Positions 2,151 to 24,838 of a stretch of 64,000 bases of DNA are shown in pieces. The first letter of the stretch is position 1. Every line of letters begins with the position of its first letter. Made by a program: the position numbers and the translations under genes. The notes beneath the pieces were generated by a model, which worked only from the letters and a program-made list of their open reading frames with translations, did no database searches and was not told the DNA's origin. The DNA is from a bacterium (GTDB lineage Bacteria > UBA8248), in assembly GCA_965200245.1 (NCBI GenBank), contig CBDATS010000004.1:224001-288000 (forward strand). Direction: 5' to 3'.

Positions 2151-2226
2151 TGGCAGGCCAGGAGGGACTCGAACCCCCAACCGCCGGATTTGGAGTCCGG
2201 TGCTCTGCCAATTGAGCCACTGGCCT
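2151..2226 (-). tRNA. tRNA-Trp (CCA)
   Basis: Cloverleaf AGGCCAG...CTCCAAA...GTTCGAGTC...CCA. Confidence 0.97.
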
Positions 2227-2257
2227 GTGAAAACCTTTTTCTGCTTCCTGAGACGCT

Positions 2258-3436
<1,179 letters not shown>

Positions 3437-3666
3437 GGCCTGCCTTCTCCTTCTAGTGTAAATATTCGAAAAATACCTTCAGGGAGAGAGGAACCATTTC
3501 CTCCCTTCTACCTTACCATTCCCGAAAAACGCACTTTATACCCACTCGGCTGAAATCTTGTCCATCGCCACAGGGAAAATCGGCAAAACCCAGAGAGCGC
3601 AAGGCGTTTCATACAAATTACAAGATAATGCACAAACCTCAAATTATCAATGAATCTCACCCGCCC

Positions 3667-3742
3667 TGGAGCCCACGACCGGACTTGAACCGGTGACCTC
3701 TTCCTTACCAAGGAAGTGCTCTGCCGGCTGAGCTACGTGGGC
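3667..3742 (-). tRNA. tRNA-Thr (GGT)
   Basis: Cloverleaf, anticodon loop TTGGTAA, 3' CCA. Confidence 0.96.
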
Positions 3743-3919
3743 CGACTACACCAAGGGCTCGCGAACGTCATTTATTTCAGCCGAAGCAACCTCATCGAAT
3801 GATGAAACCGGAGAGGCGTTCCGGGCGAATAATACAACTTATTCCGGCCAGGGCAACCCCAAAAGCCGAAAGTCACATGAATCAAACAAATACCAAGGCG
3901 GAAAATCCCCGACTCGTCC

Positions 3920-3995
3920 TGGAGCGGGAAACGGGGCTCGAACCCGCGACCCTCAGCTTGGAAGGCTGATGCTCTACCATCTGAGCTATTCCCGC
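3920..3995 (-). tRNA. tRNA-Gly (TCC)
   Basis: GCGGGAA acceptor stem, loop CTTCCAA, 3' CCA. Confidence 0.96.
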
Positions 3996-4041
3996 CTCTA
4001 AATCCAAAGCGCACGTCTCGCTCATCACAATATTCATCTTA

Positions 4042-4126
4042 TGGTGGGGAGGGGAGGATTCGAACCTCCGAAGGCTGAGCCGTCAGATTTACAGTCTGAT
4101 CCCTTTGGCCACTCGGGAACCTCCCC
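4042..4126 (-). tRNA. tRNA-Tyr (GTA)
   Basis: 85-nt class II cloverleaf, loop CTGTAAA, 3' CCA. Confidence 0.96.
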
Positions 4127-4288
4127 TGGAAACCAAGCCCAACAAAACAAACATAAATGCTATCAGAAAATTTCGCGGAAACCATCTGTTCCCCGAAACC
4201 GCCGCATCCATCCAAACCCGTAAAGAGATAACGCAGGCGACTTTCAGCCGGATTATCTGCTGCGGGGTCCTAAAGGCGCGTCCCGCCG

Positions 4289-4364
4289 TGGAGCTGGCGA
4301 GAGGACTCGAACCTCCGACCTGCTGATTACAAATCAGCTGCTCTACCAGCTGAGCTACGCCAGC
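4289..4364 (-). tRNA. tRNA-Thr (TGT)
   Basis: Cloverleaf, loop TTTGTAA, 3' CCA; order Thr-Tyr-Gly-Thr-tuf as in the classic tufB operon. Confidence 0.96.
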
Positions 4365-22042: not shown

Positions 22043-23041
22043 CTACCCTCGCAGGGCCGCTACGTCCAGGACCTCGCCCGTCACAGCACTCTGCACGACT
22101 GCCTCGAGCACGGCAACGACCTCGAGTCCTTCGGGTCCGCCCGTCTCGGGAGTGGCCTCGCCGCGGATGCACTTGCAGAACTCACCCATCTCGTCCGCCA
22201 GGGCGTCTCCGCCCACGACCTCAACCTCGGTGCGCGCCTCCTCGCCCACTTTGGCTACGTAGAGCTTTCCGCCCTCTTCTTCGCTGTAAGCGCGCATTTT
22301 CGTGCCGAAGGCTGCCGTGTCACAGATCTTTGGAACGACGAAAGAGGAGCCGATGTGGCCTAGCGGGCCACTCTCGTACTCGATGATGATGTTCGTCGCA
22401 TCGTCCAGGTTCGTCTTGCCGAGCAACTTCTTGCTGAAGGCAGCCACACGCTTCGCGGGACCTGCCAAGTACTGAAGGTTGTCGATCATGTGGACACCCA
22501 GGCCCGTCATGGAACCCGCAGGGCATTCGGTGGGGTCATTGCGCCAGCCCGACCTGGCTTCGAAACCCATGGGCAGCGAAAGGTTGGCCTCAAGTTGATG
22601 CACTACTCCGAGTTCACCCGCATCGATCATCCGCTTGATCTCGCGATTCGCGCCGAAGCGGCGGCGGTGGTGTCCAACCTGCAGGGTGACGTTCGCGGCG
22701 GAAGTTGCCTCGACCGCCTTTTTGGCCTCATCGACGGTGAGGGTGAGCGGCTTCTCGACAAACACGTGCTTGCCTGCCGACGCTGCCGAAGAAATCATGT
22801 CCAAATGCGTGGAGTGAGGCGTCGCGATGATGACGCCTTCGACCTCCGGGTCGTTCCATACTTCATCCAGACTACCTGCCATCCGGCAGCCGTGTTTCTC
22901 TGAAAACGCCTTGCGAGCCTCCTCGCTGCGCGCGAAACCCGTCACCACCTCGCCCGAACCACTGCGGTTCAGGGCGTCCACCAGAACGCCGCCCCACCAG
23001 CCAAGACCGATAGAGGCAAGTCGCACCTTTTCATCAGCCAT
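22043..23041 (-). CDS. Gfo/Idh/MocA family oxidoreductase
   Basis: GLGWWG, ATPHSTH, GKHVFVEKP. Confidence 0.92.
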   Translation of the reverse strand: MADEKVRLASIGLGWWGGVLVDALNRSGSGEVVTGFARSEEARKAFSEKHGCRMAGSLDEVWNDPEVEGVIIATPHSTHLDMISSAASAGKHVFVEKPLTLTVDEAKKAVEATSAANVTLQVGHHRRRFGANREIKRMIDAGELGVVHQLEANLSLPMGFEARSGWRNDPTECPAGSMTGLGVHMIDNLQYLAGPAKRVAAFSKKLLGKTNLDDATNIIIEYESGPLGHIGSSFVVPKICDTAAFGTKMRAYSEEEGGKLYVAKVGEEARTEVEVVGGDALADEMGEFCKCIRGEATPETGGPEGLEVVAVLEAVVQSAVTGEVLDVAALRG

Positions 23042-23183
23042 GATTCGACTCCTCATTTACCGAATGGATGAATTCGCGGCGTTCCATGGAACATCGCGTC
23101 GAACAGACACCGCATGATTTTGTGCAGGCCGCACCATAACCCAACAAGGTGTACTTGAAAACCACGCCCGAGAAAAACAGGTC

Positions 23184-23215
23184 AAAAAAAACCTCCTCCC
23201 GTCTCCGGGAGGAGG
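23184..23215 (-). terminator. Rho-independent terminator
   Basis: 10-bp stem, GAGA tetraloop, U8 tract. Confidence 0.85.
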
Positions 23216-23336
23216 CTCTCGCAAGGGGTAGTTGCGAGATGTATGATTGCGTGGCGGAGGAGTGCCGACCCGATCAGCTACCCCTCTCGCCAGCCTGCCG
23301 GGGCGTGCCGCCTATGAACGCCCCGACCGGCTTGCT
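23184..23336 (-). ncRNA. Candidate sigma-54-dependent small RNA (~150 nt)
   Basis: Begins 12 nt downstream of a -24/-12 motif, folds into GC-rich stems, and ends in CCTCCTCCCG-GAGA-CGGGAGGAGG-T8. Confidence 0.65.
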
Positions 23337-23346
23337 CTTATTATCT

Positions 23347-23362
23347 TGCAAGCACCGTACCA
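23347..23362 (-). promoter_or_regulatory. Sigma-54 (-24/-12) promoter
   Basis: Minus strand TGGTACGGTGCTTGCA, i.e. GG-N10-GC, close to TGGCAC-N5-TTGCW. Confidence 0.75.
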
Positions 23363-23390
23363 TTTTTTATTTTTCGGAAAAGTCTTTATA

Positions 23391-23403
23391 TATCAATGAA
23401 TTA
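23391..23403 (+). promoter_or_regulatory. IHF binding site
   Basis: TATCAATGAATTA is an exact WATCAANNNNTTR match in an AT-rich tract ~30 bp upstream of the -24 element. Confidence 0.65.
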
Positions 23404-23513
23404 CAATTCTGCGCAGGCCCGCCGAATTGCCACTTTGTCACAAGTCACCGGACAACGACGACAAAACGTCATGGGAAAAAATCAATTTCAATTCCGTGGG
23501 GGAATTCTTCTCT

Positions 23514-24128
23514 TCATTCAGAAGCAGCTGATTTTTCGGGAAAGGCGTCCAGCGCCTTGGAAACGGCCGCCTTCATCTCGTCTCCGTGTGCAAGCGCCGT
23601 CGTCGCGCGGACTTGCGATTCCCACAAGGTATCCTCAGAGTTCAGGTCGAGAAAGTGTATCTCGACCCGCGCGGCGCAAACTTCTACGTCCTCGCAGGAG
23701 CGCTCGCCCGCCGCTATCGCTACCGCCTGTGCGCCGGTATCCCTGAGCGCCGAAAGATGGGCCTCAGCGATTTTTCCTTCTTTGTTCAGCAAATCGTCCG
23801 TTTTCTTTTTTTCGAGTTCCCTGGGCCAGCGGACGACCTGATAGCCCTTTGCAATCAAGACGTCCCGAATCAGGAAGGCGCCCTCAATCAGTTCGATCCT
23901 CCTGCCCTTCGGCGCTTCTATACCCGCCTTCTTGTAGACGTCGCGGAAAAGCCCCGTCCAATCGCTCGGATATTGGAACGGGGCGACAGTGAGGCGCGCA
24001 AGCGCTTGTATCTTCACAGGTCGTGCGATGACCTGCCTCACGGACAACTCATAGGCGCACCCCGCCATAAGGAGAAGCGACAGCACCGCAGGCAAAAGCG
24101 GAAGCCTCGACGCGAAGCTCTTCATCAT
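23514..24128 (-). CDS. Hypothetical lipoprotein
   Basis: Signal peptide with lipobox-like MAGC; overlaps the upstream gene stop. Confidence 0.7.
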   Translation of the reverse strand: MMKSFASRLPLLPAVLSLLLMAGCAYELSVRQVIARPVKIQALARLTVAPFQYPSDWTGLFRDVYKKAGIEAPKGRRIELIEGAFLIRDVLIAKGYQVVRWPRELEKKKTDDLLNKEGKIAEAHLSALRDTGAQAVAIAAGERSCEDVEVCAARVEIHFLDLNSEDTLWESQVRATTALAHGDEMKAAVSKALDAFPEKSAASE

Positions 24129-24838
24129 CGGTCGCTCCATGCGATTCGCTCCACCCAGTCGAGGAGCAACGCATATACGTCCCAACTCTCGCTCCAGATG
24201 GAGGAGGCGTATGAGACCGCCATCCCCCAGCCTCCCACAGAGACCAACGTCGCACCGCCGATACAAACGAGGTCCAAAAAGAAGATGAAGACCCAGGAGA
24301 AAACGCGGCCTCCGCGCGCAAGATCGGGTTGCGATGCGCCCAACGCCCGCAACGTCATGAGTACATGCAGGCAAAGCGTGAAGCCGGAAAGAAACGCTAC
24401 AGCCTGCGGAATCCATCCGTATGCCAGAGCCCAATTGAGCAGCGCGCCCAAGAGCAGGACGACGACCGTCAGCAGCGGGAAAAAGTAGGGCGCCAGTGTA
24501 ATCAAGGGGTTCGTGCCGCTCAGACCCACCTTACCGCTGCCGCGTCCTACCTCGAACGAACTCACCTTCTTCCCCGTGAGCAGGGCAAAAGCCAATTGCG
24601 TGAATTCGCGCACGAAGGCGTAGAGAAATTCAGGGGGCTTCAGCCTGTGCCAGACAGAGTAGGCAGCCACGCCTGCCAGGAAGACCCAACCTTCGGTCGC
24701 GGGCAGATACGAACCTGTGCCACTCGCGAAAAAGGCAGCCGGGAGGTGCGTCCCGAACGCGAGCATCGCCCCCCAGCAGGAGGGCAACAGGAGTACAGTG
24801 ACCATCCAGGCCAGGAGTCTCAACAGAAAGGACTTCAT
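24125..24838 (-). CDS. M50B-like membrane protein with degenerate zinc motif
   Basis: AFVREFTQLAFALL (HExxH position), NPLITLAPYFFP. Confidence 0.6.
   Translation of the reverse strand: MKSFLLRLLAWMVTVLLLPSCWGAMLAFGTHLPAAFFASGTGSYLPATEGWVFLAGVAAYSVWHRLKPPEFLYAFVREFTQLAFALLTGKKVSSFEVGRGSGKVGLSGTNPLITLAPYFFPLLTVVVLLLGALLNWALAYGWIPQAVAFLSGFTLCLHVLMTLRALGASQPDLARGGRVFSWVFIFFLDLVCIGGATLVSVGGWGMAVSYASSIWSESWDVYALLLDWVERIAWSDR

Follow-up and report, generated by a model that had tools for sequence, protein, structure and literature searches.

GlmY (GlrR/QseF, Enterobacteria) is a sigma-54-dependent small RNA (sRNA), and in Myxococcus the sRNA Pxr has been proposed to have a sigma-54-type promoter. 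To our knowledge, almost nothing is known about the RNA regulators of the uncultured lineage considered here. In the Vibrionaceae, the Qrr RNAs are described as small terminated RNAs, some of them multi-copy, driven by sigma-54 and an NtrC-family regulator, LuxO (bioRxiv 10.1101/2021.07.01.450815, PMC3730234, PMC10162802). GlmY and CrcZ/CrcY are described as enhancer-binding-protein-dependent sRNAs with upstream activator sites, which sequester a protein (PMC4152352, PMC6296734). The Cuckoo/alpha-r14 sRNAs of Alphaproteobacteria, such as NfeR1, are multi-hairpin RNAs with an anti-Shine-Dalgarno (anti-SD) motif of the CCUCCUCCC type, which in the Cuckoo family is reported in each hairpin loop while the stems vary (PMC10746234, PMC4615179); the NfeR1 promoter, as described there, is without a sigma-54 signature.

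We analysed a window of 64,000 nucleotides, the whole stretch of DNA presented here. Its minus strand carries a spacer bounded by a lipoprotein gene upstream (24140-23514) and a Gfo/Idh/MocA oxidoreductase gene downstream (23056-22043, assigned by Pfam). Comparison with related genomes indicates that this spacer holds a real conserved gene, that of a structured RNA of about 150 bases with a predicted sigma-54 promoter, in an uncultured bacterial family. We regard it as a new family of putatively sigma-54-dependent sRNAs within a known kind of regulator, that of Qrr, GlmY and CrcZ.

The likeness to Qrr lies in sigma-54 with a candidate NtrC-type regulator, in a small terminated RNA, and in the paralogous copies of some genomes. 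The RNA described here is longer, however, and folds differently; the present genome yielded no Hfq gene; and the regulator is not adjacent to the RNA gene and scores 377 bits with the NCBIfam LuxO model, whose cut-off is 800. The enhancer also seems to differ from the LuxO box in its half-site letters. With CrcZ/CrcY (CbrB and sigma-54, Pseudomonas) and GlmY, the RNA shares a sigma-54-type sRNA promoter with upstream activator sites, but it has no repeated CA-rich or GGA loop motifs and belongs to another phylum; Pxr, too, comes from an unrelated lineage. Letters of the CCUCC type, as in Cuckoo/alpha-r14, are present in this multi-hairpin RNA, but CUCCUCC and CCUCCUCCC lie here inside stems, and the only exposed pyrimidine-rich part is the loop of a helix called P3 below.

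A first-pass annotation of the window had not recognised the sequence as any known sRNA, Qrr, GlmY, CrcZ and Pxr included, and a search of Rfam agrees, as no family reached its gathering score over the region. The best sub-threshold scores were those of nse_sRNA (21.1 versus 75 bits), anti-hemB (20 versus 49.5) and ar14 (13.9 versus 58.8), those of 20-21 bits being driven by the terminator. In the literature on sigma-54, small RNA and Nitrospinota, none of the matches listed mentions Nitrospinota, and further searches gave only known systems.

Promoter and upstream control elements

The complete unit proposed by the first-pass annotation, of sigma-54/IHF type, for an undescribed small structured RNA with an intrinsic terminator, is strongly supported by comparison with relatives. 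Its predicted elements, with a hairpin that precedes them, are as follows.

23490..23507, minus strand: hairpin GAATTCC-CCCAC-GGAATT, just 3' of the stop codon of the upstream lipoprotein gene
23459..23471, minus strand: distal enhancer site UAS-1, TGACGTTTTGTCG, an inverted repeat GAC-N5-GTC centred at about -129 from the predicted start
23421..23440, minus strand: proximal enhancer site UAS-2, TGACAAAGTGGCAATTCGGC, centred at about -95, from the alignment of upstream regions
23391..23403, plus strand: IHF consensus TATCAATGAATTA, an exact match to WATCAANNNNTTR, centred at about -61
23347..23362, minus strand: sigma-54 promoter TGGTAC-N5-TTGCA, TGGTACGGTGCTTGCA, in which 10 nt separate GG (23361-60) from GC (23349-48)
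23184..23336, minus strand: predicted RNA of 153 nt, running from the +1 (23336) through the whole U tract

The annotation had read the promoter correctly, in letters and coordinates. It has 10 of the 11 letters of TGGCAC-N5-TTGCW. Such a match alone is not rare, since 61 sites with at least 10/11 consensus letters are present in the 3.68-Mb genome, and the case for a promoter rests on conservation in relatives. Promoter and IHF counts were made on 30 of the 36 distinct copies of the RNA, five promoter-less copies and one copy with an insertion, in G014, being left out. GG-N10-GC was kept in all 30, and at least 10/11 letters in 27. In the G014 copy (L063/L086), about 75 nt are inserted between the promoter, followed by a truncated P1 start, and the complete RNA; this sequence is found on two contigs of the assembly. 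The IHF consensus, claimed as exact, was confirmed by direct reading. Between promoter and enhancer, in either orientation, the consensus is exact in 6 of the 30 copies and has at most one mismatch in 23.

The activator site had been proposed as TTGTC (23455-51) facing GACAA (23438-34). Both words are there, and GACAA lies within the conserved UAS-2, but TTGTC falls in a variable spacer; the conserved sites are instead the inverted repeats at 23471-23459 and 23440-23421. In most copies, the upstream alignment has a ATGACGATTTGTCG-like UAS-1 sequence 105-110 nt before the -24 element. UAS-2 of the relatives consists of two overlapping 5-3-5 inverted repeats (TGACAAAATGTCAATTTGAC; GTGACAAAATGTCAATTTGAC) at a fixed distance, the second half being degenerate in the window's copy. 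Upstream activator sites at about -129 and -95, with an IHF-like site at about -61, fit the layout of a sigma-54 unit, in which such sites stand some 80-150 nt ahead of the promoter, often with IHF bound in between.

Allowing one mismatch, a 14-mer of UAS-1 was found at the RNA locus in 22 of the 23 genus genomes. Matches elsewhere are few; 45 were counted in all, versus 10 with the reversed control, 7 of which fall in one genome. The strict motif occurs in each genus genome only at the RNA gene, a pattern that resembles a regulator devoted to sRNA genes, as with Qrr. In the genome of the window, at least 10/11 promoter letters and an exact UAS match coincide only at the RNA promoter; no other good promoter there carries the motif, so that the search for a wider regulon by this route was negative. 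A one-mismatch UAS site recurring in five genomes was set aside; in the three examined, it lies inside a long conserved stretch that looks coding.

Other signals were noted in passing. On the 9.6-kb contig C12 of G000, around positions 300-700, two sigma-54-like sites are interspersed with TTAGTGAGTGCTCACTAA palindromes and three GTTGCCCCCGTGGATGCCAC repeats in tandem; this cluster may be a mobile element or contamination (8% contamination in the assembly). A weak CRISPR-DR25 match was traced to the hairpin at 23490-23507. The lipoprotein gene forms a pair (24838-23514, minus strand) with that of a membrane protein, and most genomes keep this pair in synteny with the RNA. The predicted lipoprotein has 208 residues and the lipobox LMAGC. 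Neither protein has a Pfam or NCBIfam match in the window, and in relatives only is the membrane protein weakly M50B-like by Pfam. Further off, at 2154-4364 (minus strand), lies a cluster of five tRNA genes.

Fold and distribution of the RNA

By direct reading, the 153-nt stretch is GC-rich and ends with CCTCCTCCCGGAGACGGGAGGAGG followed by T8 at 23184. Its predicted fold has an energy of -89.5 kcal/mol (z = -8.6), and none of 200 shuffles folded equally well. The structure was assessed on an alignment of the 36 distinct copies, the controls being pairing partners slid by 1-3 columns and 500 shuffles. With P1, P2, P3 and the terminator taken together, 96.9% of cells are paired versus 42-49% in the slid controls, and 22 pairs have changes on both sides versus 3-9; no shuffle (0/500) reached the observed values. 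This conservation of structure had been named as a check by the annotation. Four predicted helices are supported by covariation and are listed with the linker between them, "both-side" meaning changes on both sides of a pair.

23292..23332, minus strand: P1, a long hairpin with apical part GUUCAUAGGCGGCAC; 16 pairs, 10 with both-side changes, 96.2% paired
23253..23291, minus strand: P2, a hairpin; 15 pairs (3 + 12), 98-100% paired, 3 with both-side changes and 9 that never vary
23240..23252, minus strand: single-stranded linker ACGCAAUCAUACA, conserved in the genus and partly across the family
23217..23239, minus strand: P3, stem CUCGCA/UGCGAG with pyrimidine-rich loop ACUACCCCU; 6 pairs, 4 with both-side changes
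23184..23216, minus strand: intrinsic terminator, a 10-11-bp GC-rich stem with GAGA loop and U8; 10 pairs, 5 with both-side changes, 97.5% paired

The predicted +1, which had been placed at the base of a GC-rich hairpin, is indeed 4-5 nt upstream of P1 (23332-23292). The stem of P1 covaries freely while its apex (AGGCGGCAC) is near-invariant. P2 is almost invariant in sequence: the anti-SD-like CUCCUC has GAGGGG(U), the 5' arm, as its partner, CUCCUCC pairs with GAGGAG, and the loop is CGG (UGG in most relatives). The anti-SD-like motifs are therefore not in loops: CUCCUCC belongs to the P2 stem (3' arm) and CCUCCUCCC to that of the terminator (5' arm), a point against the pairing model given below. 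The conserved parts left exposed are the P1 apex, the linker and the P3 loop, which in relatives is C/U-rich. The strong U8 terminator is as announced, a covarying stem (CCTCCTCCCG/CGGGAGGAGG) and then T8 ending at 23184. Nearly all aligned copies have a perfect 10-11-bp GC-rich stem and U6-U9; the GGA of the loop is not conserved. A simple promoter/terminator scanner did not have this terminator in its list.

The annotation had also drawn a helix enclosing an anti-SD-like motif and, mutually exclusive with it, a second stem. The first, AGGGGTAG/CTACCCCT, fails, as it is perfect in the window only, is paired in 69.6% of cells versus 47-62% in slid controls, and has one pair broken in 26 of 34 sequences. 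The second, CTCGCAA/TTGCGAG, is a real covarying helix, P3 (CTCGCA/TGCGAG), but the mutually exclusive switch between the two is unsupported.

The stretch from P2 to the terminator varies from 15 to 63 nt among copies, with length changes that are not multiples of three. Pfam found no match in ORFs overlapping the RNA on either strand, and no ORF is conserved. We conclude from the non-triplet variation and the lack of Pfam matches that the region is not coding, in line with the earlier reading that it had no credible ORF.

With BLAST, the RNA turned up in all 22 other genomes of the genus, in 31 of 36 from the family, and in none of 24 genomes outside the family. A covariance model built from the 36 distinct copies, which gives 174 bits on the window's own copy, found it in 36 of 41 other genomes of the family and in none of 9 genomes in the rest of the phylum. 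The model missed five family genomes: four from genus g5, which are reduced (2.0-2.2 Mb), and one from g3, which is fragmented and 87% complete. In the genome of the window, the stretch is single-copy. Weak third matches of the model (24-27 bits; G002, G012, G062) proved to be coding-region ends with terminators. A degenerate 21-mer run on the GTDB species genomes gave 32 matches. Of these, 28 are full copies, and the MAGs that carry them are all labelled Nitrospinota, Nitrospinaceae, (Candidatus) Tectomicrobia or 'bacterium'; the other four (MAGs labelled Acidobacteriaceae, Pseudomonadota, Anaerolineae and Lichenihabitans) are chance matches. Sequencing runs containing the full stretch are labelled sponge metagenome or bear a coded organism label.

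We infer a transcript of the RNA gene. Metatranscriptome contigs (X6, X7) aligned to 22400-24200 cover the 5' part of the Gfo/Idh/MocA gene and the upstream gene and none covers 23184-23336, contigs being unable to show either ends or absence. From a third run (X19), no contig aligned to this interval.

Stand-alone gene or leader of the Gfo operon

The annotation had left two roles side by side, a trans-acting sRNA or an attenuator of the downstream operon. We favour the stand-alone sRNA gene, which is reasonably probable against a leader or attenuator on the grounds given below. The cis reading, which we consider unlikely, would have the sigma-54 promoter drive the Gfo-XDH-ARPP-1 operon, with the RNA and its terminator setting read-through, perhaps by sensing a metabolite or a protein. 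It draws on position. All 30 promoter-bearing copies of the main locus, from at least seven genera, are followed 108-203 nt away by the same, co-oriented Gfo/Idh/MocA gene, then by an XDH-family molybdenum subunit and an ARPP-1 protein, and a cis element would be expected to show such unbroken synteny. The protein with the ARPP-1 domain (ARG and rhodanese-phosphatase-superfamily-associated; 19538-18375, minus strand), encoded directly after the XDH-family molybdenum subunit, is an unusual partner for an enzyme of this kind.

Attenuation would call for an alternative pairing, and one is conceivable between the 5' arms of P2 and of the terminator, with 94% of cells paired. This candidate antiterminator, however, has no covariation beyond shuffles (42/500 for cells paired, 41/500 for covariation score), the switch helix drawn earlier is not conserved, and the near-universal perfection of the terminator, in stem and U tract, also argues against regulated read-through. 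Moreover, the operon appears to have a promoter of its own after the terminator:

23133..23161, minus strand: putative sigma-70-like promoter of the Gfo operon, TTTTCA-17 nt-TATGGT

TTTTCAA and TTGGGTTATGGT are conserved, separated by a 10-nt spacer of fixed length and, within the genus, variable sequence, and this layout is kept across genera. With 8/12 letters, the promoter scores under the threshold of the simple scanner. Transcription from this promoter is expected to start near 23126, and one RNA-library contig extends about 39 nt further upstream, to 23165, which would fit some read-through of the terminator and to that extent the cis reading. The interval 23161-23110 also holds a covarying 5'-UTR hairpin upstream of the Gfo/Idh/MocA gene, and its TTGGGT motif recurs inside P2.

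The second copies bear on the question in two ways. That of G030 (L085, G030:C36, about 2310-1996, minus strand) lies away from the Gfo locus. It has a perfect TGGCAC-N5-TTGCT promoter (TGGCACGCCGCTTGCT), UAS-like repeats and its own terminator. It follows a TPP-enzyme gene, and about 48 nt after it come the ends of convergent genes, one of them ComEC-like, so that this copy, unlike the 30 of the main locus, has no co-oriented gene to lead. Together with the conserved sigma-70-like promoter, it is what makes us favour a stand-alone sRNA.

Five genus genomes have a second copy of another kind, without promoter (L062, L041, L047, L054 and L067, in G002, G016, G012, G011 and G010, respectively). 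It is placed 5-7 kb downstream of the main copy and ahead of a sodium:solute symporter gene in all five. In four it comes directly after the ARPP-1 stop codon and a small GC hairpin, and in the fifth it is preceded by no more than a remnant of the end of the ARPP-1 gene. These copies retain CTTGC from the old -12 element but have lost TGGCAC. In BLAST, the homology of second copies runs from 23331 to 23184, matching the predicted RNA exactly. The place of these copies, between ARPP-1 and symporter in the same gene cluster, suits the cis reading, by which they would act likewise on the symporter gene; on the stand-alone reading, they would be sRNAs from the 3' end of the operon.

Candidate activator and mode of action

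The rpoN and enhancer-binding protein genes that the annotation had asked for are present: one rpoN copy (Sigma54_DBD match of 201.6 bits) and only two true enhancer-binding proteins, each with full Sigma54_activat and HTH_8 domains, which makes the sigma-54 regulon unusually small and tractable. The genome also has four genes of the HU/IHF family. One of the two regulators, of the NtrC type (REC-AAA+-HTH), adjoins a 741-residue PAS histidine kinase; among NCBIfam models, AtoC, NtrC and ZraR rank highest on it, all below their cut-offs. It is 22-41 kb from the RNA gene in many genomes. The other is GAF-AAA+-HTH.

We tentatively regard the NtrC-type regulator as the likely activator of the RNA, and the argument is one of co-loss and elimination. 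The four g5 genomes, without the RNA, are also without an ortholog of this regulator, their matches to it (46-47% identity) covering the AAA+ and HTH parts only; this amounts to essentially one loss event, in reduced genomes. The GAF-type regulator is retained in g5 genomes, at 61-66% identity. Of the 21 genus genomes with a match, 17 have a RimK-like gene 2-10 kb away from it, and in the genome of the window this RimK-like gene is preceded by an intergenic sigma-54 promoter of its own, accompanied by a different palindrome. That promoter (TGGCACGCATTTTGCT; G000:C4:1171966, minus strand, outside the window) is upstream of the RimK-like ATP-grasp gene; the palindrome, ACGATATATCGT, is about 115 nt further upstream, and the GAF-type enhancer-binding protein 6 kb away.

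Sequence comparison establishes the predicted promoter, the helices and the terminator; it also shows that the RNA is confined to one family and that one copy is independent of a downstream gene. The best explanation of the whole is, we believe with fair confidence, a free-standing gene for a structured sRNA of about 153 nt transcribed by sigma-54 polymerase. In the corresponding working model, an NtrC-family enhancer-binding protein would bind the two inverted-repeat sites at about -129 and -95, a protein of IHF type would bend the DNA at about -61, and the activator would open the -24/-12 promoter. Transcription would start near 23336 and stop at the stem and U8 of the terminator, at 23184. 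The RNA would then fold into P1, P2, the single-stranded linker, P3 and the terminator hairpin. It would most likely act in trans and without Hfq, the exposed linker and the pyrimidine-rich, anti-SD-like P3 loop pairing with ribosome-binding regions of mRNAs. In this model, both the pairing and the identity of the activator are suppositions.

The search for targets took four probes (the loops of P1 and P3, the linker, and the linker together with the P2 3' arm) to about 3960 start regions, as given by a crude in-house gene caller. Duplex energies at start regions equalled those of gene-internal controls (for instance, 131 versus 129 at or below -26 kcal/mol), and neither the neighbouring genes nor the regulators were outliers. 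Across 23 genomes, a 12-mer complementary to CUCCUCCGCCAC had 223 matches, about 30 of them in the RNA genes; the reversed control had 182, to be compared with the roughly 193 left. For a 19-mer complementary to the linker, the RNA gene itself was the only close match. An apparent target at the start of the NtrC-type regulator gene was discarded, since it falls in the last coding part of the kinase gene and relatives do not conserve it.

This lack of signal from mRNAs is one point for a structured RNA that would bind a protein rather than pair, as a decoy or scaffold recognised through the P1 apex and P2. Conservation of P2 beyond the needs of a plain helix (9 of 15 pairs never vary) and an apex that stays near-invariant above a freely covarying stem point the same way. 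But invariant sequence is equally expected of a base-pairing seed, no partner is known, the CsrA and Hfq genes were not found in this 96%-complete genome, and the terminator-loop GGA is not conserved; we think such a role improbable, slightly more so than a leader. A chance assembly of motifs in a spacer, without function, for which one might invoke the 61 sigma-54 matches of this level and the X6/X7 contigs that show no transcript over the RNA but cannot show absence, is scarcely credible, being contradicted by the conservation of promoter, structure and terminator, with covariation, in 36 distinct copies from at least seven genera.

Returning to the free-standing sRNA, a further step can be proposed with some reserve: the RNA might be the main or only output of a dedicated system of PAS kinase and NtrC-type regulator, LuxO/Qrr-like and of independent origin, in an Hfq-less lineage labelled Nitrospinota/Tectomicrobia, with a promoter-less paralog made in some species from the 3' end of the Gfo-XDH-ARPP-1 operon. 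We hold this possible, and on balance doubtful.

The finding leaves unchanged the understanding of how sigma-54-dependent sRNAs work. It defines a new RNA family known from 36 distinct copies, described by a covariance model and having four covariation-supported helices, and it gives a marker RNA for searching metatranscriptomes. It adds a sigma-54 control region, complete and conserved, from genomes with no more than two enhancer-binding proteins. It also provides a concrete candidate pair of promoter and activator, testable in a heterologous host. If the dedicated-system reading were true, two inputs would converge on one RNA sequence.
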